Source: Clostridia bacterium (GTDB lineage: Bacteria; Bacillota; Clostridia; Christensenellales; CAG-917). From it: a DNA stretch of 64,000 nucleotides. How positions within the stretch are numbered: the stretch's first letter is position 1; each line of letters starts with the position of its first letter. The position numbers and the translations under genes are program-made. This document shows, in pieces, positions 6,001 through 29,262 of the stretch. Where the stretch lies: positions 14,062-78,061 of the forward strand of contig JAKSOR010000002.1 of assembly GCA_024405515.1 (NCBI GenBank), given 5' to 3'. Below the pieces are notes generated by a model. The model searched no databases, was not told where the DNA came from, and saw nothing but the letters and a program-made list of their open reading frames with translations.

Positions 6001-9000
6001 CATATGATACAGAGTCGTTATAAAGAGGTGTGCCATCATAAGGTTTGCTGTCGGACTGTGACTTGATTGTGATAGGACGCTTTGAAATTGTTCCGTTGCC
6101 GTTTATAAATGTAATATTATAGTTTCCAGTTGAATCATAACCGGTTGCTTTCTTTGTTATTTTAAGTTTTGCCTTTCCTTCGGTATCAAATGCCACTCTG
6201 AATTCCTGGATGCCTGCATCAGAACCTGAGGTGAGGGTGATAAGTGAAGGAAGTATTTCATCTACGGTTTCCACAAGACCGTCTGTTGTGAATGTGCCGC
6301 TTAGAGGCGTGCCGTCATAAATCTTATCTGTAGGAACGGTTGTGATGGTGAGGTCTTTCTTTGTTACTGTAAGAACACCGTCCACACATGTGATATCGTA
6401 GTTTGAGGTCACATTGTTTTCAGATGAGTCTTTGATTACCACATTGCCAAGAGTGGAAGCGCCTGTTCCGGCGTCTGTTATTGAACCTGATGCAACGGCA
6501 GTGGCTGAGTGGCCTGAGATAAGACCTGAAACAGTGAATGTCGAAGGTGCATTAAGAGCAGTTCCGTCATATGTCTTTTCATTATCATCGGCTGTGAGAG
6601 TTGCTTCTTTTGGAAGAACCTTGATCTTTGCCAGTACGTAGGTGATAGTGTAGTTCGCGGTTACATCATTTACTCCGTCAGTAACTGAAACAGCAGTGAA
6701 TTCGTTTTCAGTATATGTTACGTTTTCGGCATCATATACTACGTTCTTATAAACTGTGGATGCCGATACAACAACTGAATGGCCGGAAGCAAGTCCCTGC
6801 TCGGAAGTGATTTCAAAATCGGTAAATGTATGTTCTTCAGCATCGTAGGTGAAGTCCTCACCGAGTGTGGTGATTTCAATTTCACGTGATGTGACAGTTA
6901 TTGTTCCGTCTGTATAGGATATATCGTAGTTTGAGGTCACATCGTTTCCGTCAGCATCATAAATAACAGCATCAGAAACAACAAGTGAATCTGTTCCTTT
7001 GTCTGTTAATGAACCGGATACTGTTGCTTCTGCCGTATGACCTTCCACCAGATTATCCGTAGTGAAATCAGTATCGGCGGCGGTAAGCGGTGTGCCGTCA
7101 TATATCTTAGAGATTGAATTTCCTGTAAATGTTATTTCACGGGCAGTTACACTCAGTGTTCCGTATGTCCATACTATGTCATAGCTGAGTGTGGCATCAT
7201 TTTCCTCATCACCGATACGTACGGTGAATTCATTATCCACATCGGTTATTACATCCTTTACGCCGGTTGATGAAATAATGCTGATTTCATCTCCTGAAAT
7301 AAGACCGTCATAAGTGAAGCCCTCAGTGAAATACTGCTCCTCTCCGTTATAAGTGAATTCCTTATCCGGGGTTGATATGCTGAGCTGACGGGCCGTGATT
7401 GTGATTGTGCCCGTTGAGACATAAACGAATGAATAGTTTTCAGTGACATCATTTCCGGATGCATCTTTTACATTGAATGTTATCTCATTCGGTGTACCGT
7501 CTGAAACTGCATAAATTACTTCGGTGAATGTATCTGCATCGGCAGTATGTCCCGAAATAATGCCGTCAAGTGAATAGCCTGTGCCTTCTTCGTGATTTGA
7601 GTGTTTTTCTTTATCGTATTGGAATGAAGCATCATATGTAGTGACTGATACTTCTTTAGGAAGAACAGTAAGTGTTCCGTATACGTATGTGATATCGTAG
7701 TTCGAAGTCTTGTCGTTTGCACCGTCTGAAACGGAAACGGTGAGGATATTGTCAGTGCCGTCTGTTATATAGTGAACGGTTGTTTCAGCATTAAGAAGTT
7801 CAGCAGTTTCGCCTGAAACTGTCTTTGTATCGGATGTGATCTCAAACGTGGTTGCCTGGTGATCTTCATCATCATAGGTCCATGTATCACTTGCCGTTGT
7901 TACTGTTATTGCACGTTTTGTGACCTCGAGTGCACCTTCAGTGGTCTCAATATCATAGTTGTCTGTTACATCCTCATCTCCGTCAGATACGGTTACAGAC
8001 TCTATTGTGTTAGAGGAAGTTCCTGCATCTGTCTGTGAACCTGTAATGACCACGTTAAGTGAATGTTCGCTTATTAGTCCTTCTGATGTGAATGTACTGC
8101 AGGTAAGTGCAGTTCCGTCGTATTCTTTTGAATCGTCATCCGAAACAACAGTTAATGATTTCTGTGTGACTGAAAGTTTTCCGTAAGTGTACGAAATAAG
8201 GTAGTTTGCAGTGGTATCAGTGCTGTCTTTCTTTACGGATATCTCAAACTGGTTATCCTTTCCGGACTCTGATACATTCTTTATAGTGCTTACAGAAGAT
8301 GCAACGACTTCGGCTGTTTCACCGCTTGCAAGTGAAGTGCCTCCTGTAACTGAGAAACCGGTCCATGAAAGTTCTTCGCCCGTGTATTCAAAAGTCTTGC
8401 TTTCTGTTGTGACTGACAAAGGACGTCTTAAAAGAGTGAGGGTACCTGTTTCATAGGTGATATCATACTGTTCTATTACATCTTTGCCTTCTGCGTCCTC
8501 AATTCTGTAAACAATGAGATTGTCTATGCTGTCCTCATTACCGTCAGTATCAAAGAATACATCTGTGATTGATGTGGTACTGAGTACTTTTATTGTCTGG
8601 TTAGGGGCAAGGCGGTCTGCACTGATTCTGTCATCAGAAAGCGGAGTGCCGTCATATGTTTTTGAAGCAGTAGGGGTGGTGACAGTGAGAACTCTCGGTT
8701 CTACTTTAACTGCTCCGTACTGATAGTTAATGGTGTAATTTGAGGTTACATCTTTTTCACCGTCTTCAACTTTAATCTCAAAGAGATTTACGAGATTTCC
8801 TACTTCTTTAATCTTTGTATCTGATGTGAATACGGCTTTCTGTCCGTTGGCAATTCCAAGGTCACCTACGGTGACAAATGAGTTCTCGAAATGTTCTGTT
8901 CCGTCATATTCGAAGGTTTTGCTGTTCGATTTGATGGTTATAACCCTCTTTTCGATAGAAATGTTGCCATATTCATATGAAATCTTATAGTTGAATGTGT

Positions 9001-10330
9001 TGTTTGTTTTATCTTTGCTGAGGATATTACATACGATTCTGTTTACTGCTGTTGAGCAGTCTGTGATTTTTTCACAGGAAACAACTTTTACCGTATCTTC
9101 TCCTGCAAGCTTGAGTTCTGAAATGACTTCAGTGTTTTCAGCAGAGTGAAGCTGTCCGTCATAAATCCATGACTCCGTAGCGCTTTTGATTGTTACCGGA
9201 CGCGGTGTAACCGTAAGAGTTCCGAATGTATATACAATGCTGTAGTTTGCCGAGATATCTTCACCGTTTCCGTCCTTGACAGAAAGAACGAGTGCATTTT
9301 CGACTCCCTCGCCATTTACATCCTGAACTTTGGTTGAACTCTCAACAACAAGCTGGTGCCCGTCCACAAGGCCATCCTGCATGAAATCTGTATATTCATG
9401 AACTGTTCCGTCATAATATGATGAATTTGACGGGGTGGTTACATAGATGAGTTTCTGTTCAACCGTGAGTTTGCCGAAATTCTGAATAAGGTTGTAGCGG
9501 TCAGTTACGTCAACGCCGTTACTGTTTATGATATGGAATTCAAGTTCATTTGATACCGAACCTACATTTGTTATGGACGGGAGAGGGAGAGTGCAGATTA
9601 ACGTATCTCCGAAAACAGATGAAAGTGAACCTTCTGTTATCTCATATCCGTCAGGGATTCTGACAGTAAGCGGTGAGGCTGAGTAAGTAGCTGTTTCCGA
9701 AGAAACTTTGATGGTCAGGAATCTCTTTTCAAGAGTGAGGTCCGAAGAAATAATATTAAGGTTATACGAAGAAGTTACATCTTCTCCGTCCTTGTTTAAT
9801 ATCTTGATTGCTGATTCTTTAGGGGTTACTTTGGTGGTTGATTTTGAAGGATCCTCAAAAATAAACTCTGAGCAGGTTATTGTATCCTCGTAACTTAAAT
9901 CTGCCCTGACAGTAGGAAGATCTCCGTAAGTAATTTTGTTTTCGGCTATATAAACATTTGTCTGCTGCGGCAGAATGGAGAATGCATGCGGAGAACCGGT
10001 ACGTTTTGTGCCGAAAATTCCCTTGGATACGGCTCGTACCTGATAATCACCTATTTCAGTAGGGACATCGGTGGTCCAGGTTATGCCGTCTGTACTGTAT
10101 TCATAATACACATCCTGCATGATTGCTCCTGCAGTATATGTGATTTCATTTCCGTAAATAAAGGAATCAGGGCAGTCAGCATCTGTTACTGTTCCCGTGA
10201 TTCCCATAAGGGTAGCGGTAAGGGCAAGAACAGCAGCTACAGCAAGAATAAATATGAATCTGTAACGGAAAAAGAACTTTCTAACTTTAGCAAGTTTTTC
10301 CATTTTCTGTTGGTATTCTTGATACAACAT
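1..10330 (-). CDS. Giant N-terminally anchored surface protein, partial (more than 3440 aa; C-terminus lies beyond the left edge). It is built from tandem ~75-80-aa YDG/MBG-like repeats with one embedded transglutaminase-like core.
   Basis: Hand translation of the minus strand. AGGAGG (10340-10345) lies 9 nt upstream of the ATG at 10330 and gives MLYQEYQQKMEKLAKVRKFFFRYRFIFILAVAAVLALTATLMG (hydrophobic anchor). An alternative in-frame ATG is at 10303. I translated the first ~450 codons without a stop. Frame continuity was confirmed at 2220-2440 and at 1-300. The ORF is missing from the track because it has no stop inside the window. No other frame holds a long ORF across 1-10330. The repeats carry YDG(T/Q)P/L, GH.L, a D(V/I)T..Y motif and G.LT(V/I), as in the neighbouring 1536-aa paralogue. 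Confidence 0.85.
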   Translation of the reverse strand, partial: MLYQEYQQKMEKLAKVRKFFFRYRFIFILAVAAVLALTATLMGITGTVTDADCPDSFIYGNEITYTAGAIMQDVYYEYSTDGITWTTDVPTEIGDYQVRAVSKGIFGTKRTGSPHAFSILPQQTNVYIAENKITYGDLPTVRADLSYEDTITCSEFIFEDPSKSTTKVTPKESAIKILNKDGEDVTSSYNLNIISSDLTLEKRFLTIKVSSETATYSASPLTVRIPDGYEITEGSLSSVFGDTLICTLPLPSITNVGSVSNELEFHIINSNGVDVTDRYNLIQNFGKLTVEQKLIYVTTPSNSSYYDGTVHEYTDFMQDGLVDGHQLVVESSTKVQDVNGEGVENALVLSVKDGNGEDISANYSIVYTFGTLTVTPRPVTIKSATESWIYDGQLHSAENTEVISELKLAGEDTVKVVSCEKITDCSTAVNRIVCNILSKDKTNNTFNYKISYEYGNISIEKRVITIKSNSKTFEYDGTEHFENSFVTVGDLGIANGQKAVFTSDTKIKEVGNLVNLFEIKVEDGEKDVTSNYTINYQYGAVKVEPRVLTVTTPTASKTYDGTPLSDDRISADRLAPNQTIKVLSTTSITDVFFDTDGNEDSIDNLIVYRIEDAEGKDVIEQYDITYETGTLTLLRRPLSVTTESKTFEYTGEELSWTGFSVTGGTSLASGETAEVVASSVSTIKNVSESGKDNQFEISVKKDSTDTTANYLISYTYGKLSVTQKSLTVVSDDDSKEYDGTALTCSTFTSEGLISEHSLNVVITGSQTDAGTSSNTIESVTVSDGDEDVTDNYDIETTEGALEVTKRAITVTTASDTWTYDDEDHQATTFEITSDTKTVSGETAELLNAETTVHYITDGTDNILTVSVSDGANDKTSNYDITYVYGTLTVLPKEVSVTTYDASFQYDKEKHSNHEEGTGYSLDGIISGHTADADTFTEVIYAVSDGTPNEITFNVKDASGNDVTENYSFVYVSTGTITITARQLSISTPDKEFTYNGEEQYFTEGFTYDGLISGDEISIISSTGVKDVITDVDNEFTVRIGDEENDATLSYDIVWTYGTLSVTAREITFTGNSISKIYDGTPLTAADTDFTTDNLVEGHTAEATVSGSLTDKGTDSLVVSDAVIYDADGNDVTSNYDISYTDGTITVTSREIEITTLGEDFTYDAEEHTFTDFEITSEQGLASGHSVVVSASTVYKNVVYDAENVTYTENEFTAVSVTDGVNDVTANYTITYVLAKIKVLPKEATLTADDNEKTYDGTALNAPSTFTVSGLISGHSATAVASGSITDAGTGASTLGNVVIKDSSENNVTSNYDITCVDGVLTVTKKDLTITTVPTDKIYDGTPLSGTFTTDGLVETVDEILPSLITLTSGSDAGIQEFRVAFDTEGKAKLKITKKATGYDSTGNYNITFINGNGTISKRPITIKSQSDSKPYDGTPLYNDSVSYEDANALLEGHEISVTEYTSVTEIGSEENALTIVILDKATENDVTANYDITEDFGILTILGREIEITVSDLSLEYNAETQGQTDTTAFTITDGELAEGHIIITDSLVFTGGRKDIGTYSSEIGIDLSSILVQDEEGNDYTNGYTFTIIPGTLEITKRTLEIVTESQEFVYDGEEHSYKEYGAGYHFSTGSLLEGHSLTCTSFTTVTDVAAEGTDNVLAFSLDPSYADLYNFSVSDEYGTLTVTPRPVTITTGSLTSKYNKEYQYSSTFTVSETTPLVTGHAASVSEYTKVTDVTLGADGSETSVKNLLTVIIKDSSESDVTANYSIEYITGELLILRRTYTITTLSAEKVYDGEYLEGLYTAAFDEGFVPDNTEITTTKEKNAGIYTNDITSISFYRIVEDSVHEDVSSNYNVIIEEKGTLTISARPISFVIGSTTWNYDGTEHSLPDFEEVLNDGVSQLVPGHTASAKDYVKIKNVSRVLNSVTIEIKDSDDEDVTDNYIISVNEDAYLEITKISLSVRLKNAAYEYSGEYYGKEDFIVSTDGLAVSDYILYDTPQLGTIPGEYTIFFTSLSVMNVSGEDATSNYDITEEEGTLTILKRKITVESEEWHDIYEAGKTYNHNVVKITSGSLVSGHILVTETVTLAAKYTEGTPNEITLCEIVLKSNPEEKLTEFYEITKVENLFYIGNPFISFTTLSKTVFLDELEDGQALVFNDETAYKIDDHLLSEDHHIVFSITGSQTGIGSSKNTFTYSILDGDDQDVSALYEIKTTEGTLTIKKRTLEIITGSGTWIYDGNPHSSDIISLNTDELKEGYRFCHEDPYVTITEPGTVYNTVAYWLEDSTGARVSDAEFSKYYSVNEKFGELTVSGLIVIIQSASDSKDFDETPLTNPRVDILFAQLRDGDVIDDTILTAATGSNTGTATETTTKDNTVDMTKFKVTDGDGNDVTALYSPNVIFGKLTVYATDEEEKDEQDEDQPMLTVLTTAPSVIYLKINAYGSYAKTGFIPFNMVSSSSNHITVNGKQVSADYIASLILEKYGKDLNTATITSYLDFGYPLPYYMDPESGTYQVQTSDAAYTGNSSAAYTVGYYTMTMSDLQNLLGSSISLGSEYESELNAYNSYVHSTYLGIDTDTKQFMDGIIKDNDLNNPALSLYQKIAGVASYIQASADYSLTYDMALDSAENVAIAFLSQYKSGICKHFATAATMLYRALGIPARFVEGFVTEITEANTPVDITFESAHAWVEVYIDNYGWFQVEVTGGERGHMHEHGEESPVIPPIPDSLTITVKPKDVTAQYDGVSHTASVVEVIGLKELGGIEALRALGYDFTAMFRGEGTVPGIYESEIIPDTFHITKRDPENPGAAPVDITSACSVTYEKGTIEITKRDVTIVSSPGYWPYDGEIHTKNSYTLKDGSSFVGGDKEFVECISSIKELGEVDNDFIVSVSDKDGNDASSYYNIIKEFGKLQIVRISVILRTGSASKIYDGEPLTKDTYSIEGNVLDSHQFLVTVTGTITDIGKTLNTAEYTITDKESGEDVSRYYAVNEEFGELTVAAKIITVKSSEKAKFYDGTPLAGDPDGYEYSELPAGYTIKVTITGKTKDGNAQTAPNTFTVQLFDANSVEDTSFEIDYHYGDLIIMPKNVTLTTASKTGYYDGKTALTCPEYVYTDGDGLISGHSIYTATNWTSITEIPAGAELKTDIKTGEKYYEVTNTADFIVMDGENHDMTANYNFQNTNYGKLKLYKKFISVTSGSDEKEYDGTPLILDSEDDTSFFIDDTNLFEGHRVVCERTGEITEPGRVPNAYTVTVLDEDGNDVTYVYTVNEDFGTLTVTKRNIILLTFSAEKKYDGTPLTCDEWEILSGSVLTEIGHILRVNVYGSATEKSGKNSAAADVYMMDEENEIDLSDLYNIVIYEGDLTIILREITITSPGLTKVYDGTPLTNGDKNTIQIKGAASLEPGHTLEYDFDESSTIKQAGSVINKVTYRVIDGDNNDVTYLYKITENF
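2220..2440 (-). other. Transglutaminase-like core inside the giant protein. The Cys and His are present; the third triad position reads Glu instead of Asp.
   Basis: Reverse translation gives QYKSGICKHFATAATMLYRALGIPARFVEGF...ESAHAWVEVYIDNYGWFQVEVTGG. The Cys codon is at 2414-2416 and is in frame with the start at 10330. Confidence 0.75.
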
Positions 10331-10348: not shown

Positions 10349-13300
10349 TTATTTTGCGACAGTTACTGTAAGTGTTCCGTCAACAGTTGTTATGTTGTAG
10401 CATGATGTCACATCCTCGCCACCAGCATTCTTGATGATTACGCTGTCAATAGTGTTCGGGGATGAACCAGGTTTAAGCTGTGAGCCGCTTACTGTTACTG
10501 TGATAATATCTCCGGATGCAAGATCTCCGGTGATAGTGTATGTGGTGCATGTGAGTGCAACAGGGTCTGCTTTGTTGTATGTGCCCGATGCACTGTCTGC
10601 TGTAATTGTTATGTCTCTAGGTGTGACCTTGATAATTCCACAGTTTCCTGTGATTCTGTAGTACTTTGTGACATCATTTCCGCCTTCATCCACAATCTTA
10701 TAAGAAGCTACGTTATCTGCTTCGCCTACTTCTTTTCTTGATGCTGTTGCATTAAGATATTCAAATGAATGTCCGTCGGCAAGACCGGCAAGTGTTGCAG
10801 CCTGTTCAAGTGAAGTTACGGCAACGCCGTTAATTTTTATTGAGGATGATGAGTGCTCAGTACCGTCATATGTCACAACCATACCTTCTGTCTGAACGGC
10901 AATATCCTGCAGATATGTCTGCATCTTTCCGCCATAGTATGTGAACTTAAAGTCTTTTGTCACGTCGTTGCCATTCGGGTCGAGAAGAACAAATGAATCG
11001 ATGGCACTTGTATCCGTACCGAATCCGAGGAGTGTTCCGACGGTTTTTACTTTTTTGTATGTATATCCTTTTGCTTCGAGCTTCTCAAGACCTTCAAGAC
11101 CTGTCGGTGCATAAAGGGTATATGTTTCTCCGTCTTCGATATCTGCGGCCTTATAGGAAATGTTCACCGGTTTGACATAGTATGTTGCGCTTTTTTCTGC
11201 TTCGGTCAGAGGTGTTTCGTTTACGACCGTGTTTCCTGCGGTTGCATCAATCTGTACCCAGCCGATTCCGTTTACATAAACTTCCGTCCATGCATGGCGT
11301 TTCATATTTGTGATGGTTACCCATTCGTTTTCTTTTGCATATGCATAGTATCCTGAAACGTATCTTGCAGGGATACCTTTTGCTCTGAGCATCATTGTGC
11401 ATGCTTCAGCAAAATGAGAGCAGATACCCTGTTTATAATCTCTGAGGAATGCTATTACTTTATCCTGTTCGGAATCCAGCGCTCTGTCGTATGAGATATT
11501 GTAATCAGCTGCATTTCTTACATAATTTACGATATCCTCAACGGATACAAGACTGTTTTCTGCAATGATTTCATCAAGGAAAGTCTTTGTGTCTGAAGGA
11601 ATCTGGAGATATCTTCCTGCATTGCTTACAAATGCATAGTAATCAACTTCTTCGGAGGCATATGTGTAATCCAGAGGCTGACTCATTGCACTGATATCAT
11701 CATAAGTTAGTGAGTAATAATTTACTGTGTATTCACCGCCTTCAGGGCTTCCAGTATAGAGAATGTCACTTGTCTGAACGCCGTTTCCGTCCATTGCCAT
11801 ATAGTACGGAAGAACATAAGGGGAATTTATCAGTTTGATTGTTGCAGAAGAAGGTGTAATTCCTCCGTTTCCATCAATTACTGCGGATGTGAGATAGTTA
11901 TATGAATAAGTACCGTCTAAAAGTTCCGTATATTCGGTGCCTTTTGTCCATCCGTCCCCGTCATATCCTGTATAAGAGAAACTTCTTAAATATACAGGGC
12001 CGGTTTTATCTGCCTTGATGCTGAGCACACTGTATTCAGAGGCATACTCTTCTTCAGTTGAAAGGCCTGTTCTTTCCTTTGAGTAGACAAGGATTAACTG
12101 ACCTTCGTTTATTAAGATGTCATATGAATCAGTTACATCCTCATCGGTTTCAGGATCATATCCGTCTATTGTGTCAAAGAGTGATGCATCTGCCATAAAG
12201 CATACGAAAGTCTCTCCGTCATTTGTTGCCTTCACGTAAACTTTGTCAAAGTCCTGATTGAACCCGAGGAGGCTTATTGTTGAGAGTGAGTTGAAGGTAT
12301 CATCTCCTATAGTTATTGTGTTGCCGGTTGTAATCTTGATAAGACCGTCTGTTGAACTGTTTCTTCTGAAGATCTTAATACGTGCAAATGTGTTTGTTGC
12401 ATTTCCGATATAATCAAGGTTACCGTCAATTGTTGCCACAATATAATCAGTAGGGGCAGGTGAACCGTATGTGATATCAAATTCCTTATATGTAAGCGGA
12501 TGACCTGCATATTCTTCTGTTCTGTCTTTTGATCTTACCGTGATATCGCGCTCGACTATTTCAAGAGTTCCGTCAATAACTGTTATGTCATAGTTTGCAG
12601 TTACATCCTTTGATACTGCAAGAATCTTAAGTGAACCACTCTTCATTCCGTTGACTGCAGTGCCTACTTCATTTATTGAAGCGGATTCGGCAAGAATGAA
12701 TGTGAGCGTGTGACCGGAAATAAGTTCTCCTTCTGTGATTGTATAATCTTCTGATGTGAGTCTTAACGGAGTTCCGTCATACTGCTTTGATGCAGAATCA
12801 AGCTGAATGGTTATCGCAAGCGGCGACACAGTTAATGTGCCGAAGTCTTCAGTTATATCATAGTTAGAAGTCTTCGGGCTGTTTGCAACAATGTTTCTTA
12901 TCATATATGAGAAACTGTTGTCTTTTTCACCGGCATCTAAAATGGATGCATATGAACCGGAAACAACCAGTTCCTCGCCGTCAGCGATGACACCGTCGGT
13001 AATTGTGTATCCCTCACTTGTAAGCGGAGTTCCGTCATATGTCTTTGATGCGGAAAGCGTTGTGATAGTGAGAGTCTGCTTTTCAACAGTAAGTGTTCCG
13101 TATTCAGGAATAAGTTCATAGTTTGATGTGACGTCGTTTTCATCGGCATCTTTTACGAGAATTGAGAACTCGTTATCGATTGTTCCTGCATCGGTTAATG
13201 AATTAAGGAATGTTACCGTGAGAGTATGTCCGTCCGCCACAGTGGATTCAATAAGTTCATAATCCTGTTTTTCAAGCGGAGTTCCGTCATATGTCTTTGT

Positions 13301-14959
13301 TGCTGATAATGACTTAATATTAAGTGCTCTCTTTGCGATGGTTAATGTTCCCTCGTTAAGAATGAAATTGTAGTTTAAAGAATTATCTGTTCCGTCAGCT
13401 TTTGTCACGGAATATGTGATGGCGTTAGTTACTGAACCCGGTTCTGTCATTTCCGTATCAAGAGAGTAGGTCAGTATATCCCCGTCAGCGGCATCGCCTA
13501 CAGCGGTAATATCACCGCAGTCTATCTTTTCACCGTTATATACTTTGAGTTTATCCTCAGAGGTGAGGGTAATGTCTCTCTTTAAAATAGTGAATGTGCC
13601 GGTTGTTACGATAATATTGTAGTTTGAAGTTACATTTGTGTTGTTTGCATCAAATACGAGAGGACTTATCTTGTTCTCAATGTTTTCACATACATCTGTA
13701 ACTGTTGTCACTGCTCTGTAGTAAATTGTGTGTCCGTCGCATAATGTTCCGTCGGTTATTGTAAGATCGGCATCCGTGCTTGCAAGCGGAGTTCCGTCAT
13801 AAACTTTGGATTTTGTTGCACTTTCAACAAATAAATCACGAGGTATAACCTTGATTGTTCCGAACTGTGTATCAACAATATAGTTATCTGTTATATCGTT
13901 GCCGTCAGAATCTTTGAATGTCCATGTTACTTTATTAGGTGTTTCTCCGACATCAGTACGTGAACCTGTGTAGACAATATCAAATACATCGCCAGGAGCT
14001 ATTTCGCCCTGAACAATTTCATAACTCTCGCACTTAATAGGAGTGCCGGTGTATTCTTTGGTATCTGAACCGGTTTCGATGGCAATTCTTCTGATTCCCA
14101 CCTGAAGGGTTCCTTTCTGGCATGAAATAATATAGTTAAATGAAACATCATTACCGTCTTTATTTACAATCTTTACAGAGAAGTCATTAACAATGGTGCC
14201 TACGTTTGTGATAGATGAATCATTATCAACAATTATGTAGTCTCCTTCGACAAGTGAATCTTCATCCGTTTCAAAAGAAGTATCTTCAAGCGGTTCCCCG
14301 TCATAAATCTTTGAGGCAGAAGGGGATTTAACGGTAATGGAACGCGGTGTCACAACAAGTGAACCGAATTCTTTTGTGATATCATAGTTGGCCGTAACGT
14401 CTCTTGACTGTGAATCAAAAACAGTGACTGAGAATGTGTTTGCAACGGTTCCGACATAGGTTACCGACTGTGTGAAGTCAGCACTGATTCTGTGACCAGG
14501 TGCAAGTTTACTGTTCTCACTTATGGCATATTCATGGCTTTCAAGCAGTTTTCCGTCATAAGGTTTTGCCTTGGAAACGGAAGTAATTGTCAGTGGGGCC
14601 TTATTAACGGTAAGTGTTCCGAGTTTTATGTCAATTTCATAATAATCGGATACATCGGTGCCGTTGGCATCAACAATTGTTACAGACATATAGTTAAGGG
14701 AAGATCCAACCTCGGTCTGTGAACCATATACAACTACTTTCGGTGTATGGCCTGCTTTAAGACTTCCTTCTATTATCGAATAATCACTGCAGGTATGTTC
14801 CTGCCCGTCATAAACTGCTGTCAATGATGCGGATTCGAAGACAACTGATGATTTTTCGACATCAATTACATTGCCTCCGACCAAACCGAAAATGATTGCA
14901 AGAGTACTTGCAATTCCGATTACTACTGCACCTATGATGTAAACTAGTTTGTTCTTCAT
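10349..14959 (-). CDS. 1536-aa N-terminally anchored surface protein. It has about ten YDG/MBG-like repeats, a transglutaminase-like domain and two or three further repeats. No LPXTG, SLH or other C-terminal anchor was seen.
   Basis: ORF track. The N-terminus MKNKLVYIIGAVVIGIASTLAIIFGLVGG is a signal anchor. The recurring repeat is K.YDGTPL....Y.I..G.L..GH.L.......T..G...N.....I......DVT.NY.I....GTLT(V/I). The core reads DKVIAFLRDYKQGICSHFAEACTMMLRAKGIPARYVSGY...RHAWTEVYVNGIGWVQIDAT. The protein ends ...DGTLTVTVAK. Confidence 0.9.
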   Translation of the reverse strand: MKNKLVYIIGAVVIGIASTLAIIFGLVGGNVIDVEKSSVVFESASLTAVYDGQEHTCSDYSIIEGSLKAGHTPKVVVYGSQTEVGSSLNYMSVTIVDANGTDVSDYYEIDIKLGTLTVNKAPLTITSVSKAKPYDGKLLESHEYAISENSKLAPGHRISADFTQSVTYVGTVANTFSVTVFDSQSRDVTANYDITKEFGSLVVTPRSITVKSPSASKIYDGEPLEDTSFETDEDSLVEGDYIIVDNDSSITNVGTIVNDFSVKIVNKDGNDVSFNYIISCQKGTLQVGIRRIAIETGSDTKEYTGTPIKCESYEIVQGEIAPGDVFDIVYTGSRTDVGETPNKVTWTFKDSDGNDITDNYIVDTQFGTIKVIPRDLFVESATKSKVYDGTPLASTDADLTITDGTLCDGHTIYYRAVTTVTDVCENIENKISPLVFDANNTNVTSNYNIIVTTGTFTILKRDITLTSEDKLKVYNGEKIDCGDITAVGDAADGDILTYSLDTEMTEPGSVTNAITYSVTKADGTDNSLNYNFILNEGTLTIAKRALNIKSLSATKTYDGTPLEKQDYELIESTVADGHTLTVTFLNSLTDAGTIDNEFSILVKDADENDVTSNYELIPEYGTLTVEKQTLTITTLSASKTYDGTPLTSEGYTITDGVIADGEELVVSGSYASILDAGEKDNSFSYMIRNIVANSPKTSNYDITEDFGTLTVSPLAITIQLDSASKQYDGTPLRLTSEDYTITEGELISGHTLTFILAESASINEVGTAVNGMKSGSLKILAVSKDVTANYDITVIDGTLEIVERDITVRSKDRTEEYAGHPLTYKEFDITYGSPAPTDYIVATIDGNLDYIGNATNTFARIKIFRRNSSTDGLIKITTGNTITIGDDTFNSLSTISLLGFNQDFDKVYVKATNDGETFVCFMADASLFDTIDGYDPETDEDVTDSYDILINEGQLILVYSKERTGLSTEEEYASEYSVLSIKADKTGPVYLRSFSYTGYDGDGWTKGTEYTELLDGTYSYNYLTSAVIDGNGGITPSSATIKLINSPYVLPYYMAMDGNGVQTSDILYTGSPEGGEYTVNYYSLTYDDISAMSQPLDYTYASEEVDYYAFVSNAGRYLQIPSDTKTFLDEIIAENSLVSVEDIVNYVRNAADYNISYDRALDSEQDKVIAFLRDYKQGICSHFAEACTMMLRAKGIPARYVSGYYAYAKENEWVTITNMKRHAWTEVYVNGIGWVQIDATAGNTVVNETPLTEAEKSATYYVKPVNISYKAADIEDGETYTLYAPTGLEGLEKLEAKGYTYKKVKTVGTLLGFGTDTSAIDSFVLLDPNGNDVTKDFKFTYYGGKMQTYLQDIAVQTEGMVVTYDGTEHSSSSIKINGVAVTSLEQAATLAGLADGHSFEYLNATASRKEVGEADNVASYKIVDEGGNDVTKYYRITGNCGIIKVTPRDITITADSASGTYNKADPVALTCTTYTITGDLASGDIITVTVSGSQLKPGSSPNTIDSVIIKNAGGEDVTSCYNITTVDGTLTVTVAK
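11225..11450 (-). other. Transglutaminase-like Cys-His-Asp core of the 1536-aa protein
   Basis: GICSHFA (Cys codon 11420-11422), HAWTEVY and WVQIDAT motifs in canonical order and spacing. Confidence 0.8.
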
Positions 14960-16407: not shown

Positions 16408-18357
16408 TTAGTTATTACTATCCATAAAGTCATCGAGTGACATTACTTCATCTTTTACGTTTGTAGCCTGAGGGATTTCATCCATATTCGGGATTTCTTC
16501 CTTAACTTCATCCTTTGAAACCTTTGCTTTCTTCGGAGCTTTGGCTTCTTTAGGAGCTTTTTCAGGCTTTGCCTCTTTGCCTTTTGCCGCTTTTTCTGCT
16601 TCTTTGTCTTTCTTTATTTCTTCCTTAAGTTCTTTTGCAGGTTTTCTTAAAACTTTCTTTCTTATGGATTTCTTTGTCTTATTCCATTCTTTCTCAAAGA
16701 ACTGCTGGAAGTATTCGTATTCTTTTTCGAGCTGTGCAAATCCTTCTTCGGAAGTGTAGTCATCCATTTCGCCTTCAAGTCCCTGAGCAGATCTTAATGA
16801 ATTAAGTCTTGCCTTAAGATGAGCAAATTCTGTCTGGAGGGCAATGAGTTCTTTCTGCTTTTCTGAAAGTTCCTGCTCTTTTGCCGCAAACAGCATATTT
16901 GCTGCCTGTAATTTCTGGGCATGGGCTCTGTCGGAATCCTGTTTGTCCTGGTACATCATTTCAATGACCTGGTCTTTGTGCTCCATATCTGCCTTAAGTC
17001 TCAGTTTTTCCGTATTGACTGCAGCAGCTATATCTTCATCTCTTGATTCTTCCATTTCCTCAATTCTCTCGTCACATTCTTCTTCCATAGCGGCAAGTTT
17101 GAGTTTGAAATCAGAGAGCTGTTTTGCATTTGTATAGGTAGCTTTTGCAAGTTCCTGCTGTGATTCATCGAGTTCTGCTTCAAGTGATTCAATCTGTTCT
17201 GATAAATCTTCTGCTTCGGAAGCCATCTTCTCAATGGTCTTTAAGGATGCAGCAAGGTTAGCATGGTCATTTTCAAGGGATTTGTTTCTTCCCTCAAGAA
17301 GTGCCATATATTCATCAGGATCACCACCATTTTCCTTTACATGTCGGCGTACGGTTCTGATTTTTTCCTGAAGTTTTAAGTCTTCTTCTTCCTTTCTTCT
17401 TAATTCTTCCTTCTCATAAGCGGATTTGTAGAGTTTCTTTATATCAAGGCCGTGTTCGTATGTAAGGAAGGCTGAAAGGAATATTACTTCAGAGAATTCA
17501 TCTCCGATGTCATCTCCGAACGGTGTTAATACCTTTGTTTCCTCGGTTATTGTGTATCCGTCTCCCTGGTAATCCGTGATAAAGGAGTATAGGGCAAGGG
17601 CGTTCTTGAAATTATGGTTCATCTTAAGAACGTTTGTTCTTGTGATAGGCGGTTTAATCATCGGTACTTTTGCAACTTCTTCCATGAGCGGGGTGGAAAG
17701 GAGTGCCTCTACGCCGATAAGACAGTTGTTGATTCTGTCGATGATTTCCTTTGATTTGTTATGTGTTGAAAGGTACTGGTCATTTAATCTTGTCTCATTA
17801 AGATCACAGGAGTATTCGAGAGTTTCGCCGTGGAATGAAATTGTCTTCTTCATTTTAAGTTTTCCGCGGTATGTGTTGGTTCTTTCAAGAATCTTCTCAT
17901 ATCTGTCCTGAATGAATGATCTTAAGTATGTGAGTACAAGATATAAGAATCTGTTCTCATATACTGCAAAATCACTGAATCTTTCAACGGAATAGAGAGA
18001 TGACGGAATAAGCGGTTCGCCTTCTTCCGGGATTCTGTCTACAAGGTTAGTGTGTTTTGCAAGGTGCTCAACGGATTCTTTTGATACATGCTTGATTTTT
18101 TCAATCGGCATGACTTCTCCGTTGCTCTGAATGAACTGACGCTGTTCGGCTATTGCTTTTTCAATATATACAAGGCCTGATTCGATCTGATTTACCCACT
18201 CCTCATCGATCTTGCAAACTGAACGGATAATCTCGATACGGTCATTTTCCGTACCTACGGAAGCAGCTATTGACCTGTAGGTCGTAGCTTCCTGAGATTC
18301 TTTCGTTATTTTGCGGTAATCAACCAGCGCTCGGTAATATAGATCGTATATGTTCAT
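16408..18357 (-). CDS. 649-aa cytoplasmic protein in the McrC position. It has a ~330-aa N-terminal globular domain (possibly McrC/DUF2357-like), a ~270-aa coiled coil, and a K/E/A/P-rich tail ending in an acidic stretch. No nuclease motif was recognised.
   Basis: The gene lies between the two McrB-like genes, with gaps of 2 nt and 23 nt. It contains the motif DFAVYENRFLYLVLTYLRSF and, later, PPITRTNVLKMNHNFKNALALYSFI. Residues ~330-560 are heptad-like and E/K/L/Q-rich. The tail reads KKDKEAEKAAKGKEAKPEKAPKEAKAPKKAKVSKDE...SLDDFMDSNN. There is no hydrophobic segment. Confidence 0.6.
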   Translation of the reverse strand: MNIYDLYYRALVDYRKITKESQEATTYRSIAASVGTENDRIEIIRSVCKIDEEWVNQIESGLVYIEKAIAEQRQFIQSNGEVMPIEKIKHVSKESVEHLAKHTNLVDRIPEEGEPLIPSSLYSVERFSDFAVYENRFLYLVLTYLRSFIQDRYEKILERTNTYRGKLKMKKTISFHGETLEYSCDLNETRLNDQYLSTHNKSKEIIDRINNCLIGVEALLSTPLMEEVAKVPMIKPPITRTNVLKMNHNFKNALALYSFITDYQGDGYTITEETKVLTPFGDDIGDEFSEVIFLSAFLTYEHGLDIKKLYKSAYEKEELRRKEEEDLKLQEKIRTVRRHVKENGGDPDEYMALLEGRNKSLENDHANLAASLKTIEKMASEAEDLSEQIESLEAELDESQQELAKATYTNAKQLSDFKLKLAAMEEECDERIEEMEESRDEDIAAAVNTEKLRLKADMEHKDQVIEMMYQDKQDSDRAHAQKLQAANMLFAAKEQELSEKQKELIALQTEFAHLKARLNSLRSAQGLEGEMDDYTSEEGFAQLEKEYEYFQQFFEKEWNKTKKSIRKKVLRKPAKELKEEIKKDKEAEKAAKGKEAKPEKAPKEAKAPKKAKVSKDEVKEEIPNMDEIPQATNVKDEVMSLDDFMDSNN

Positions 18358-23067: not shown

Positions 23068-26000
23068 TTAATCTATGTCCTTAGTTTTGATTTTTAATCC
23101 GTACAGATATACCTTGTCGTTTGCTGTACTGTTTGCTGATAAACTTGTGTTGTTAATCCTGAACTTGAGTGAATTGCCGGAGTTCAGTGTTATTGAGTAG
23201 TGAACTGGGTCAGCTGTGACTTTGATTCCGTCCTGGCTGAGTGCATCATTTATGAATACCTGGAGTTCTGAGGATGAACTCTTGAAATCTACAAAGTAAC
23301 TGAAGTCTGCCTCGACACTCTTACCTTCCGGTGCTTTTATTTCTATTGCTGTATAGTACTGTTTCTGGCTGCACTTTGATTTAAGCACTACTGCATTATC
23401 CTCGTATGCTACATATGAAACTCCCTGGAATATATCTGTAAGGGTAATTTCTTCTCGTGTCTTTGCATTGGCTGAATTGATTAATGTCCAGTGGCAGACC
23501 TTACATTCATTGTTTTCGTCAAGGTCATGGCTTCCCGGAGCAGTTGTTGAATATTCATCTCCACAGGCCGGGCATTTGAAGATTGTGTATACTTCGATAT
23601 CGCAGTTGTCTGATTCAACTCTGTCTGGAACGAAGTGGTTGATTTCTGTTGAGATTTCGCCTGCAGCTGTGAGTGTCCACTGAGTATTCTCATGTACACA
23701 TGCAGCATAATAAAGAACAGTGATATCACCGAAGCTTCTGTTTGATCTGATGCTTGGCCATGTTGTAGCTGTTCCTTTGTAATAAACAGTACCGGTGAAA
23801 TTGTTCGGATTCTGGAACCATAAGTTGGAGAATAATGCAATTGATGAAGGGGCGATAATCTTGTCAATATGTGAATCAGGATTTGTCATTGATAATTCGG
23901 CAACTGTGTAGGAATTAATCTCGCTTCCTTCGAATTCAAATGAATCGGCAAGTTCAAGAAGACCGTTTTCTGTTTCTCCTGAGATACTGTATAGATACCA
24001 TTTATCTGCATTATAGAGTGAATACGATACGTAGTAGAATTCTCCGTCTCTGAGTGTGTTTACGCTGAGAGCGCCTGCACTCTGGACAACTTCCTTTGCA
24101 TAGAGTGATACCTGGCCGTTGCTTGTTGTGCCGGTAACCACAGTTAAACCGGAAAGGTTGATGATGCCGTATAAATGCTTGCATCCCGTGAATGCTTCCG
24201 TAGAGATTGACTCAAGGTTTTCAGGAAGTGTGAGTACAGAGAGTCCGTAACAGTTATAGAATGCCTGCTCACCGATTGAAAGAAGTGAGGACGGCAGAGT
24301 GATATTATAAAGTCTGTAGCAGTTGTAATATGTTTTTCTGCTAATTGACTCAAGGTTTTCAGGAATATTTATATCTTCGAGTCTGTAACAGTTTTCGAAT
24401 GCACTTTCTCCGATTTCGGTTACTGTTGAAGGTATTGTGAGTGCAAGAAGTGAAGAGCAGTTCTTAAATACTTCTTCTCCGAATGATGTGAGATTAACGG
24501 AAGCAGAAGGAAGAGTTACAGCACTTAAATTCAGACATCCGCTGAACATGGAATCTGCAAGAACTTTTAATGATGAAGCACCGCTTAAATCTGCAGTCGT
24601 GAGTGAAGTGCAGCCTGCGAAACAGTTTTCAGGGAGTACTGTTACAGCTCCTGATACTGATACTGATTTGATTGCCGGGTTTGCATTGAAGATTCCGCCG
24701 AGAACTTTGTACTGGAAAGGGAGACCGTCATATGCATCTCCTTCTGCGGATTCGAATTCACCGAGGACGAGATTTTCAGGCATCATGCTATTAAGTGCAT
24801 ATAAGAACCAGTCTATTCCGTTTGTCTTGAAGACGAAATCGCCGTATACAGAATCGTAAAGGCTCTTCTTTGTTTTGTTATTGTGTATAAGAAGTGCATT
24901 CTTTGCAACATATCCGTGATTATCGCTTCCCTGTTCAATGTCAAATGATGTCAGATTGTATACATCATAAAGAACCGGGCATCCGATGAATGCGGATTCA
25001 CCGATATTTGCCTCACTGAGTGAGAACGGGAGATATACTGCAGAAAGTGATGAGTCATATGCAAATGCAAAGTCACTGATTGTTTCTGTTCCGTCAGGAA
25101 TTTTTGCATCTTTTAATTTTGCACAGCTGTTGAATGCATAACTGCCGATTTCCCTGAGATAACATGTGTCTTCCGGGAATAAAATGCTTTCAAGAGATGC
25201 GTTTTCTGAGAATGCATAGTCACCGATACTGCTGATACATGCTGCAATGCCGATCTTTGTGATGGCAGTGTTGGCCTCAGCAAAGTGCCCGATGATATTG
25301 TATTTTGATGCTGTTCTTACAATTCCTCTTGCATTTTCACCGGATGGTGTCTGAGGAAGTGTGAGTTCAGTCTTTGAATGATCGTAGTCAACAAGATACC
25401 AGTCACCGCCGTGTGTAACGTCTGCTTTATAGAATTCAAATCCGTTTTCATCAGTGAATTTTTCGGAATCAGCTATATATGCTGTTTCTGAATCATAGAC
25501 TGCGAGCGGGTTAGGGGCTACAGCTGTGAACGGTGAAGGGTTAATGATTTCAACAAGTTTATAGCAGTTGTTGAAAGCGTTTGATTCTATATCGTCAATA
25601 AGTCCCGACGGGATATTTATGTAGTTAAGGGATGTACATCCGTCAAATGCGTTGGACTCGATTGTCTTGATATCATCATTGAGAGAGACTCTCTTTAATG
25701 ATGTGAGTCCGTAGAATGCATTCTGAGGAATAAGTGTCGCTTTTGTAAGAGCAACTTCCCTGAGTGTTTCCGGTACATATTTATTTCCGTTTACCGCAAT
25801 GCCTGAACCGAAGATATATGCAAGATATCCGTACTCATCCCCGTTTCTGTTTCCGACATAAGGAAGTGATAACTTAACAAGGGAACCGCATCCGAGGAAT
25901 GAATTCTGACCGATGGTTGTGACTGTTTCGGCAATAGTTGCTTCGGTAAGGGCAGCACAGCTGTTGAATTCGTTTTCACTGATTAATGTGGCACCGTCTT

Positions 26001-28575: not shown

Positions 28576-29262
28576 TTAACCTTTTTTCTCCTTCAGTTTG
28601 AGTCCCACAATGAGGGCTGCGGTTGCTATCGCACTCAGTCCGAGACCTATACCTATGGTAATAAAAATGCTGCCTAATGATGAATTGAACAGTTCCGCAT
28701 AAAGTCCGCCGACCATCTGGGAAAGGCAGTATTTAATAATAAAACACTCGGCAGTGATTAAAATGGCACTGATTACGCAGAACGGAATCAGTCTCTTAAG
28801 CTCAATGCTTGAGTGCTCGTCTTTTTCAATTTTGTCGTTATTAACCTGGTTGAGAATAAGGGATACGTATGAGGTTCCTTCAGGGAGTGCAATGATTGAT
28901 GTGGTTCCTTTCTTTTCAATGAGTTCCTTTACTGCAAGGACCTTGATGATTTTGTTTTCATCATCGAATGCCACTATATCAAAATCAATGTACTGGATGT
29001 CATCACGTATTTTTGCATAAAAGTATGACTGTGTTCCCTTTTCGTAAAGAATGTACTGGTTGATGTATTTTCTGATTTTAAGGGCAGGTACAAATAAAAT
29101 CCCGATACCGCTGGCATCTTTGAACTTTTTGATGCCTCTGTCTGAGGAAGATGTGATTTTGTAACGCGATTTAAGGAAAATTCTTGCAAGCGGAAATACT
29201 ATGATTAATGCCACTGCGACTATTGTTGCGAAAATTATTCCGATCCAGCCTGCAACACTCAT
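28576..29262 (-). CDS. 228-aa membrane protein, first gene of the operon. It has TM1, a ~130-aa cytoplasmic domain and two C-terminal TMs.
   Basis: The start at ATG 29262 is preferred over the track start at 29403. GGAGA lies 6-7 nt upstream (minus-strand context GCGAGGAGACTAAAAATG), and the predicted promoter lies inside the longer ORF. The protein begins MSVAGWIGIIFATIVAVALIIVF. The C-terminal helices are LIPFCVISAILITAECFII and IFITIGIGLGLSAIATAALIVGL. Confidence 0.7.
   Translation of the reverse strand: MSVAGWIGIIFATIVAVALIIVFPLARIFLKSRYKITSSSDRGIKKFKDASGIGILFVPALKIRKYINQYILYEKGTQSYFYAKIRDDIQYIDFDIVAFDDENKIIKVLAVKELIEKKGTTSIIALPEGTSYVSLILNQVNNDKIEKDEHSSIELKRLIPFCVISAILITAECFIIKYCLSQMVGGLYAELFNSSLGSIFITIGIGLGLSAIATAALIVGLKLKEKKG

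Follow-up and report, generated by a model that had tools for sequence, protein, structure and literature searches.

What does a McrC-like protein do when no nuclease can be found in it? McrBC is a GTP-driven restriction enzyme, in which canonical McrC carries a C-terminal PD-(D/E)xK endonuclease and, inserted in the hexamer formed by McrB, stimulates the hydrolysis of GTP. The question is raised by a gene in the 64,000-nt stretch of Clostridia DNA analysed here (hereafter, the window), for which an initial annotation had proposed a plug of the AAA+ ring, with a coiled coil or a basic tail in place of the endonuclease. The open reading frame was confirmed, as were the gaps of 2 nt on its upstream side and 23 nt on its downstream side, and the gene, for which no strand had been given, lies on the minus strand (Table 1). 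Both neighbours, previously described as McrB-like, match AAA_5 above the Pfam cut-off, and all peptides quoted in the initial annotation are present in the translation, namely DFAVYENRFLYLVLTYL (aa 129-145), PPITRTNVLKMNHNFKNALALYSFI (aa 236-260), AKGKEAKPEKAPKEAKAPKKAKVSK and the terminal SLDDFMDSNN. Homologues of full length number at least 1200; the protein occurs in 294 species genomes, and a search at E 1e-30 or better gave 741 representatives. Carriers comprise hundreds of gut and rumen species, mostly uncultured and with small genomes; two cultured carriers exist, Anaerocaecibacter muris CLA-AA-M11 and Pumilibacter intestinalis CLA-AA-M10.

Table 1. Features of the McrC-like gene and of the surrounding cluster (positions in the window)
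Feature	Position	Strand	Basis or remark
McrC-like protein CDS, complete	16408..18357	-	649 aa + stop; ORF list, translation
N-terminal alpha/beta domain, aa 1-305	17443..18357	-	AlphaFold2 model
DUF2357 (McrC N-terminal domain) match, aa 56-167	17857..18192	-	Pfam PF09823
Putative ring-inserting finger, most conserved segment, aa 71-130	17968..18147	-	Conservation and low pLDDT; candidate role
Helical rod, aa 307-524	16786..17439	-	Model helices 307-342 and 347-524
Conserved C-terminal module, aa 533-570	16648..16761	-	Consensus of 91 sequences: D.t..e.F.ElE.qy..F..ff..eW.ktKk.IRk
Disordered lineage-specific tail, aa 571-649	16411..16647	-	Basic K/E/A/P stretch, then acidic end
Upstream McrB-like AAA+ NTPase, 442 aa, one N-terminal TM helix	18360..19688	-	AAA_5; hydrophobic window aa 13-47
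Downstream McrB-like AAA+ NTPase, 470 aa, two N-terminal TM helices	14972..16384	-	AAA_5; windows aa 4-35, 41-79
GH3-like domain, TM hairpin and Walker-dead McrB-like domain, 1116 aa	19696..23046	-	Glyco_hydro_3_C; TM windows aa 674-732
BspA-type LRR giant, 1834 aa, internal TM anchor	23068..28572	-	LRR_5 E 3e-185; TM window aa 149-181
Small multi-TM protein, cluster head, 228 aa from internal ATG	28576..29262	-	TM windows
Transglutaminase-core giant, 1536 aa, N-terminal TM anchor	10349..14959	-	Transglut_core E 1e-21; TM window aa 3-34
Second giant repeat protein, >3443 aa, leaves window	2..10330	-	Open-ended ORF; TM window aa 18-49

The N-terminal region had been noted to recall conserved blocks of McrC and DUF2357 proteins, a resemblance that is borne out by the proposed profile check: PF09823 matches with 30.8 bits over the whole protein and 36.7 bits over aa 1-340 alone (cut-off 23.3), the match spanning profile positions 90-198 of 251, and the family likewise scores above the cut-off in 51 of 51 relatives tested. 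DUF2357 is the N-terminal domain of McrC that contacts and activates McrB (PMC11090510). Homology to McrC is supported, the link depending on this one Pfam family together with gene position. E. coli McrC is assigned by Pfam to PF10117, not DUF2357, and no match to a solved McrC was obtained by sequence profile, hhalign or Foldseek. Specifically, among PDB sequences (hmmsearch) the N-domain profile found zero matches and the full-length profile retrieved hits due to coiled coils or composition only; the N-domain profile aligned to E. coli McrC with a probability of 0.1% (hhalign), the single-sequence target making this a weak test; the N-domain model retrieved neither McrC nor a nuclease from the PDB (Foldseek, best E 0.12, TM <0.2), and the full-length model retrieved nothing under E 0.2. 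Neither PADLOC nor NCBIfam has a family for the protein.

AlphaFold2 modelling on 51 aligned N-domains, whose mean column identity is 65%, reached a pLDDT of 82 and a pTM of 0.67. Within this domain, aa 71-130 combine a block conservation of 0.66-0.92 and nine invariant residues (R73, Q74, G80, E86, K89, S95, H98, H102 and P118), yet have a pLDDT of only 34-54 in both AlphaFold2 models. Conserved but poorly ordered in the models, this segment may be the finger that enters the NTPase ring.

The neighbourhood of the gene points away from DNA restriction. Both flanking NTPases retain an intact Walker A motif (GMSGTGKTS in the upstream one) and the NNDD signature, which can be parsed as NxxD or, alternatively, as NxD plus a further D; the CoCoNuT GTPase is of the NxD type. 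The two NTPase genes share 99.2% DNA identity over 1104 nt, so that the McrC-like gene is bracketed by 1.1-kb direct repeats able to delete it, but it is still present in all loci. Further upstream, the 1116-aa protein ends in 384 aa that can be aligned with the McrB-like neighbour (E 3e-16) and in which other residues take the place of Walker A. The membrane anchors of both NTPases, like all transmembrane helices of the cluster proteins called by hydropathy windows only, and the third, Walker-dead McrB-like domain did not figure in the initial annotation. The gene order GH3-like/dead-McrB, McrB, McrC-like, McrB, transglutaminase giants is identical in 27 of 27 long loci, all of which also contain the paralogous repeats of the second giant; a homologue of the small multi-transmembrane protein was found in nine of them. 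In a minimal variant, in which the McrC-like protein has 459 aa, the locus consists of McrB, McrC-like, McrB and MBG-repeat surface proteins. The constant linkage to giant membrane-anchored surface proteins in the long loci agrees with the earlier suggestion that the McrBC architecture has been re-purposed. Because the unit is always encoded with such giants, its function is probably at the envelope or cell surface.

The same genes could, alternatively, make up a system of the CoCoNuT or CoCoPALM kind for anti-phage or inter-bacterial conflict, in which the giants detect or bind invaders or competitors and the McrBC-like unit transduces the signal, with the McrC-like protein as a signalling adaptor and the effector elsewhere (for example, transglutaminase-like cores, or membrane damage). 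We consider this unlikely. Restriction-system ancestry, a match of the NTPases to the PADLOC candidate PDC-M26A (E 1e-46) and the loss of the nuclease from CoCoNuT McrC homologues as well (PMC11090510) speak for it, and the patchy occurrence of the gene, with a clear orthologue in only ~8 of 301 genomes sampled from the order and in none of four congeners searched, would also fit an accessory conflict system. However, no nuclease, HEPN domain or toxin was detected in the conserved core, whereas CoCoNuTs always have an adjacent replacement nuclease (PMC11090510), and the McrC-like protein has no PADLOC match. Furthermore, the G+C content of the cluster (41.2%) is close to that of the rest of the window (40.1%), giving no island signal by composition, and a cluster of >29 kb is large for a defence island in a genome of ~1.2-1.4 Mb.

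In the place that the nuclease occupies in McrC, the protein has a helical rod, most of which is modelled by AlphaFold2 as a single unbroken helix of 178 residues (aa 347-524). Its residues include 16% E, 14% A, 12% L, 9% K, 7% D and 7% Q, and its hydrophobic periodicity peaks at 3.58 residues, a power reached by one of 500 shuffles; the periodicity lies at 3.58-3.64 in 82 of 91 relatives. Residues ~330-560 had been called heptad-like: the long helical stretch is real, but the repeat is close to 3.6, and a pure heptad coiled coil was rejected, the phase concentration at 3.5 being only 0.11-0.23. Across relatives, the rod measures 171-339 residues and changes in steps of mostly 11 or 7, with 62 of the 91 lengths falling into the classes 11n+3 and 11n+10. 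The set of distinct lengths has a best period of 3.64 with a phase concentration R of 0.59, which none of 1000 random sets exceeded. Such steps preserve the helical phase, and this suggests that the rod acts as a rigid spacer or as a dimerisation strut.

Length steps of 11 residues, together with the actual tandem repeats of 11 residues that some relatives contain, also bring to mind amphipathic helices of the apolipoprotein or perilipin type, which would lie along the cytoplasmic side of the membrane, beside the anchored NTPases, as a membrane-shaping or lipid-binding scaffold and not form a coiled coil. PF01442 is precomputed for some relatives, the full-length profile matches apolipoprotein A-I in the PDB (E ~1e-4), and the partner NTPases are membrane-anchored. 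The apolipoprotein hits, however, look compositional and stand among many coiled-coil proteins (hmmsearch, PDB), and the narrow hydrophobic stripe (~3 of 11 positions) of the very acidic, charged rod suits a soluble coiled coil better. We therefore regard a lipid-associated helix as quite unlikely.

The rod is followed by a module that the initial annotation mentioned no more than it did the 11- and 7-residue length steps. In its short form, it reads F..LE.QY..EW.KTKK.IRK; E544 and W558 are invariant, and the module is kept in the 459-aa minimal variant at 29% overall identity. The K/E/A/P tail that comes after it is real, although common to the closest relatives only, and had been suggested as a polyanion-binding effector. 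This suggestion is not supported: past aa 570, the tail varies from 11 to 196 residues (no longer than 15 in 16 of the 91 relatives) and is not conserved in sequence. Over aa 593-649, its pLDDT is 31-44. We rejected it as an effector because it is unconserved; as a lineage-specific element, it would not belong to the functional core.

The reported lack of a D...(D/E)xK block held up: no pair of [DE] and K columns two positions apart reaches 80% conservation in the 51 aligned N-domains. PD-(D/E)xK or McrBC nuclease families were not found in the protein with Pfam, NCBIfam or PADLOC, nor was any nuclease found by PDB profile search or fold search, and the C-terminal half is all helix in the AlphaFold2 model. 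That the McrC-like protein is without a detectable nuclease is thus supported. A nuclease fold could nevertheless persist in inactivated form in aa 130-305 and bind nucleic acids, such that the protein would still act on DNA or RNA, as the McrC homologues of Type II, III-B and III-C CoCoNuTs keep inactivated nuclease folds (PMC11090510). The order of elements in the model (helix, beta hairpin, helices, strand, helix) bears a loose resemblance to the core of an alpha/beta nuclease; against such a relic, which we consider improbable, stand the confident N-domain model without a nuclease match in the PDB, the missing conserved acidic-x-Lys pair and the absence of nuclease family matches. As for a decaying, functionless McrBC remnant, for which the vanished nuclease might be taken to speak, we reject it as highly improbable because the gene is conserved: it is intact and full-length across its many host species, with fixed synteny and a strongly conserved N-domain, and is kept between recombinogenic direct repeats.

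We favour, at a probability of roughly 0.6, the reading that the McrC-like protein is an adaptor without catalytic activity, part of a GTPase machine that derives from McrBC, is tethered to the membrane and has a role at the envelope or surface and not in DNA restriction. Under this adaptor model, the N-domain with its DUF2357 core would be the GTPase-engaging part retained from McrC, and its finger, by analogy with McrBC, would reach into a ring of the adjacent McrB-like NTPases and stimulate it. The rod would set the distance and rotation between the two ends of the protein and might mediate dimerisation, the aromatic and basic C-terminal module would dock a partner or the membrane, and the disordered tail would be dispensable. 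The NTPase partners carry membrane anchors, and the Walker-dead third paralogue is fused to the GH3-like domain. More speculatively, and with less than even confidence, we suggest that the two anchored NTPases, the dead-McrB/GH3-like subunit and the rod protein form the cytoplasmic motor of an undescribed envelope machine of gut Clostridia, which would export, assemble, tension or signal through the giant surface proteins, the rod being a phase-locked ruler or strut that joins the GTPase ring to a second site.

An activator subunit of McrBC in which a phase-preserving rod of tunable length and a putative docking module have taken the place of the nuclease, with the motor at the membrane, makes the cluster a well-delimited example in which to ask what else, besides moving DNA, a McrB-type ring can do. 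The finding also corrects a likely mis-annotation of the protein as a restriction subunit and, if the envelope-machine reading is true, a restriction enzyme has been turned into a cell-surface apparatus.

Comparison with known systems places the cluster among McrBC derivatives. As with McrC of E. coli K-12 and Thermococcus gammatolerans, a DUF2357-type N-domain is encoded next to McrB-like AAA+ NTPases on the same strand, and by analogy one plug per ring would be expected. In contrast to McrC, a rod of 171-339 residues and a conserved C-terminal module replace the PD-(D/E)xK nuclease; in contrast to McrBC, the NTPase partners have membrane anchors, not DNA-reading domains, and comprise two active paralogues and a dead one. 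A precedent for a move of a McrB-family NTPase from restriction to a cell-structural role is PcdA of Staphylococcus aureus, which was co-opted for division-plane selection and works with FtsZ and DivIVA (PMC10602043); unlike the cluster NTPases, PcdA has been described without a McrC-like partner and is not reported to be membrane-anchored. CoCoNuTs (CnuB/CnuC) are McrBC derivatives with long coiled coils fused to the GTPase, in which the nuclease is lost or inactivated in many McrC homologues and there is always a HEPN domain or some other nuclease next to them (PMC11090510). Here, in contrast, nothing but transmembrane helices and a short linker precedes the AAA+ core of the NTPases, and neither the eight cluster genes nor the conserved core of the 27 loci yielded a HEPN domain or other nuclease; conversely, CoCoNuTs are without the membrane anchors and surface giants of the cluster.

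The cluster also resembles CoCoPALM, with which it shares a membrane-anchored McrB-like NTPase, a nuclease-free McrC homologue with a helical or coiled-coil extension (here, helix 347-524 with periodicity 3.58) and a linkage to surface-structure genes. In literature searches, CoCoPALM appeared only in an article in eLife and the preprint of that article, and no later work on it was found; none of the papers retrieved for DUF2357 treats the architecture of a McrC-like rod, and searches joining McrB with transglutaminase, LRR and Clostridia gave nothing relevant. The cluster differs from CoCoPALM in having no Peptidase_S26 (signal peptidase) among its genes and, apparently, no FtsB-like coiled coil on its NTPases, whose 40-60-residue linkers show none evident by eye next to the transmembrane helices, as well as in the near-identical NTPase genes on either side of the McrC-like gene, the GH3-like/dead-McrB fusion and the giant LRR and transglutaminase proteins. 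A locus on a separate contig of the same genome does fit CoCoPALM: it encodes a McrB fused to a transmembrane helix and a short coiled coil, together with a DUF2357 protein and Peptidase_S26. Compared with the cluster, identity is 52% for the NTPase and 28% for the McrC-like N-domain, and the McrC-like paralogue of this locus does not have the C-terminal module. The McrC-like cluster is related to CoCoPALM, a system named but unstudied, as a relative without the signal peptidase.

The McrC-like protein is encoded between two genes whose products match AAA_5, the Pfam family that includes McrB, at exactly the distances reported in the initial annotation, and every peptide quoted there is found in the translation. 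The resemblance to McrC/DUF2357 blocks noted initially is borne out by Pfam: DUF2357 is matched above its curated cut-off of 23.3 bits, with the full-length protein scoring 30.8 and aa 1-340 scoring 36.7, and the match spans aa 56-167 of the protein and profile positions 90-198 of 251. The same family was matched by 51 of 51 N-domains (aa 1-305 in our protein) taken from related genome loci, and Bell et al., who surveyed McrBC systems (PMC11090510), regard DUF2357 as the McrC N-terminal domain. A search with the family profile found no solved McrC among the PDB sequences, and E. coli McrC, which Pfam assigns to PF10117 and not to DUF2357, gave no match to the family with hhalign. Because no direct link to solved McrC structures was obtained, membership in the McrC N-domain family rests on the Pfam match and gene position. 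We consider that the protein is best read as a non-catalytic, McrC-derived adaptor (probability about 0.6).

Features of the McrC-like cluster and of the second McrBC-derived locus in the same genome (window coordinates except for L089, the locus on contig C17)
Feature	Position	Strand	Size	Basis or remark
McrC-like protein	16408-18357	minus	649 aa	ORF list and translation
Upstream McrB-like NTPase	18360-19688	minus	442 aa	AAA_5 match; 2 nt from McrC-like gene
Downstream McrB-like NTPase	14972-16384	minus	470 aa	AAA_5 match; 23 nt from McrC-like gene
Third McrB paralogue, C-terminal domain of GH3-like protein	19696-20850	minus		Homology, E 3e-16
Second McrBC-derived locus	L089:9364-15095			Fits CoCoPALM description

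The product of the gene directly upstream of the 442-aa NTPase combines a GH3-like domain and a hydrophobic hairpin with a McrB-like domain (C-terminal 384 aa, 21% identity to the McrB-like NTPases) that has other residues at the positions of Walker A, Walker B and NNDD. With this dead copy, the cluster has three McrB-like modules in all. The surrounding genes code for a BspA-type LRR giant, two transglutaminase-core/MBG-repeat giants and a small multi-TM protein, with hydrophobic anchors in all of the giants and in the small protein. Among related loci of at least 15 kb, the order GH3-like/dead-McrB, McrB, McrC-like, McrB, transglutaminase giants was found in 27 of 27, often headed by the LRR giant and the small TM protein. 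We regard a conflict system whose effector lies elsewhere as an unlikely alternative. A minimal form, present in loci L091 (genome G074, contig C20) and L092 (genome G149, contig C15), consists of McrB-like, McrC-like and McrB-like genes followed by those for MBG-repeat proteins of 423-914 aa; its McrC-like protein (459-465 aa) has a short rod and a C-module, and neither the GH3-like/dead-McrB gene nor the LRR giant was detected in these two loci. Upstream in L091 lie, among others, the gene for a Cthe_2159 carbohydrate-binding protein and that for a protein of 622 aa whose match to barnase-type ribonucleases is weak and below threshold (E 0.002).

In the AlphaFold2 model, the rod (aa 307-524) consists of two helices, of which one has 178 residues. 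Residues ~330-560 had been described as heptad-like; the hydrophobic period of the rod, 3.58 residues (power reached by 1 of 500 shuffles), is not that of a heptad (3.50) and lies between this value and that of a hendecad (3.67). A period of 3.58-3.64 recurs in 82 of 91 relatives, and in some relatives an 11-residue unit, for example NEAHAEEIRQL, is literally repeated in tandem. The distance between Y350 and W558, both invariant, ranges from 171 to 339 residues across relatives, and for 62 of 91 it belongs to the class 11n+3 or 11n+10. Because related sequences have lengths in common, the rod-length test was redone on the 38 distinct lengths only, for which phase concentration was maximal at a period of 3.64 (R 0.59), reached by 0 of 1000 random length sets. 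Rod length varies by 11s and 7s, and the rotational setting of both rod ends is therefore preserved. We find an 11-mer amphipathic helix lying on the membrane a rather improbable alternative.

The C-module (aa 533-570), separated from the rod by a short loop of low confidence, has the consensus D.t..e.F.ElE.qy..F..ff..eW.ktKk.IRk and invariant E544 and W558; it is kept in the 459-aa minimal variant, only 29% identical overall, and is not present in the paralogue from the same genome that resembles CoCoPALM, a McrBC-derived system. The tail (aa 571-649) is predicted to be disordered in the AlphaFold2 model. The K/E/A/P stretch and the acidic end noted initially do exist, but they are not conserved widely: this stretch and the DDFMD ending are common only to the closest relatives (58-69% identity), and the 91 relatives, with tails of 11-196 residues (15 or fewer in 16 of 91), have no conserved tail sequence. 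Many long-tailed homologues finish in a short acidic motif, for example, NKDE, DEDE, KTDE, IDEE or NDEQ, which may be a C-terminal linear motif that recurs on a linker with no other conservation.

In both models, the N-domain is alpha/beta, with a pLDDT of ~90 except for aa 71-130, at 34-54. No part of the family is better conserved than this segment, which falls within the DUF2357 match (block conservation 0.66-0.92; R73, Q74, G80, E86, K89, S95, H98, H102 and P118 invariant). Because strong conservation without stable monomer structure would be expected of a finger that folds only within the partner ring, the models suggest that aa 71-130 is a putative finger of this kind. No D...(D/E)xK nuclease block had been found initially, and four tests likewise gave no sign of a nuclease. 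No nuclease family was matched in Pfam, NCBIfam or PADLOC; the alignment of 51 N-domains contains no acidic column with a lysine column two positions away where both reach 80% conservation; beyond aa 307, the AlphaFold2 prediction is helix or disorder throughout; and Foldseek comparison of the confident N-domain model (pLDDT 82, pTM 0.67) with the PDB gave nothing better than E 0.12 and TM 0.2, neither a nuclease nor McrC. A much-altered, inactivated nuclease-like fold could have been retained in the alpha/beta part at aa 130-305, but it found support in none of these tests and is improbable.

The two active NTPases share an identical protein sequence over the last ~360 residues, and their genes are 99.2% identical over 1104 nt; their N-termini differ, that of the upstream protein having a single hydrophobic helix and that of the downstream protein two (hydropathy windows). 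In 21 of 27 loci, the NTPase cores of one genome are 99-100% identical, against 62-75% between genomes; in six (L027, L044, L063, L072, L081 and L086) the two have diverged to 67-80%. This sequence pattern points to persistent gene conversion. The McrC-like gene therefore lies between recombinogenic direct repeats, yet is retained in every locus, and we give next to no credence to the view that this nuclease-free gene is a remnant. Many metagenome and MAG contigs with the gene are just 2-3.5 kb long with little else aboard, which fits assembly breaks at the repeated NTPase flanks; MAGs therefore probably understate the number of cassettes and contain them in fragments. The NTPase signature GTANNDDS (window 15443-15454 and 18831-18842), compared ungapped and by eye with GLMNTADRS of E. 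coli McrB, fits NxxD and equally "NxD followed by D/E", the form assigned in the literature to the clade of CoCoPALM and CoCoNuT, another McrBC-derived system.

By pattern scan, relatives occur in 294 species-level genomes, almost all from uncultured gut or rumen Clostridia (Christensenellaceae, Pumilibacteraceae, Candidatus Scatosoma and similar labels), with two cultured strains, Anaerocaecibacter muris CLA-AA-M11 and Pumilibacter intestinalis CLA-AA-M10. A profile search run exhaustively over 1.84 billion representatives yielded 1603 matches at E <=0.001 (741 at E <=1e-30), and in nearly all of the best 150 matches listed the domain begins at or near the N-terminus. Among 301 sampled genomes of the order, ~8 have a clear orthologue and ~40 more a paralogue-level match. 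An orthologue is missing from all four congeners searched, of which three have the CoCoPALM-type paralogue alone and one gave no match; cluster G+C is nevertheless near that elsewhere in the window. The cassette thus looks accessory, though compositionally at home.

As an adaptor, the McrC-like protein would engage a membrane-tethered NTPase ring through its N-domain and finger, the phase-preserving rod would act as a spacer or dimerisation strut, and the conserved C-module would dock to the membrane or a partner. The analysis demonstrates the homology, nuclease loss, anatomy and context; ring insertion, activation, dimerisation and the cellular role are our inferences.

CoCoPALM systems are described in one paragraph (PMC11090510), and we found no paper analysing systems of this type or of the kind in the window. 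The C17 locus has genes for a TM protein (302 aa), a McrB-like NTPase of 504 aa bearing a TM helix and a short coiled coil, a DUF2357 protein of 823 aa whose long disordered region is acidic and rich in K/E/P/A, and a Peptidase_S26-like protein; the contig terminates just beyond it. Given its fit to CoCoPALM and its identity to the window cluster (52% for the NTPase and 28% for the McrC-like N-domain), the latter is a sister of CoCoPALM-type systems. S. aureus PcdA offers a precedent of a McrB-family protein gone from restriction (PMC10602043). The McrC-like finding is real, unusual and of the McrBC/CoCoPALM kind. The window cluster lacks the signal peptidase of CoCoPALM and shows no evident FtsB-like coiled coil; what it has beyond CoCoPALM is a second NTPase copy, the fusion that carries the dead McrB-like domain, the giant proteins and the C-module.
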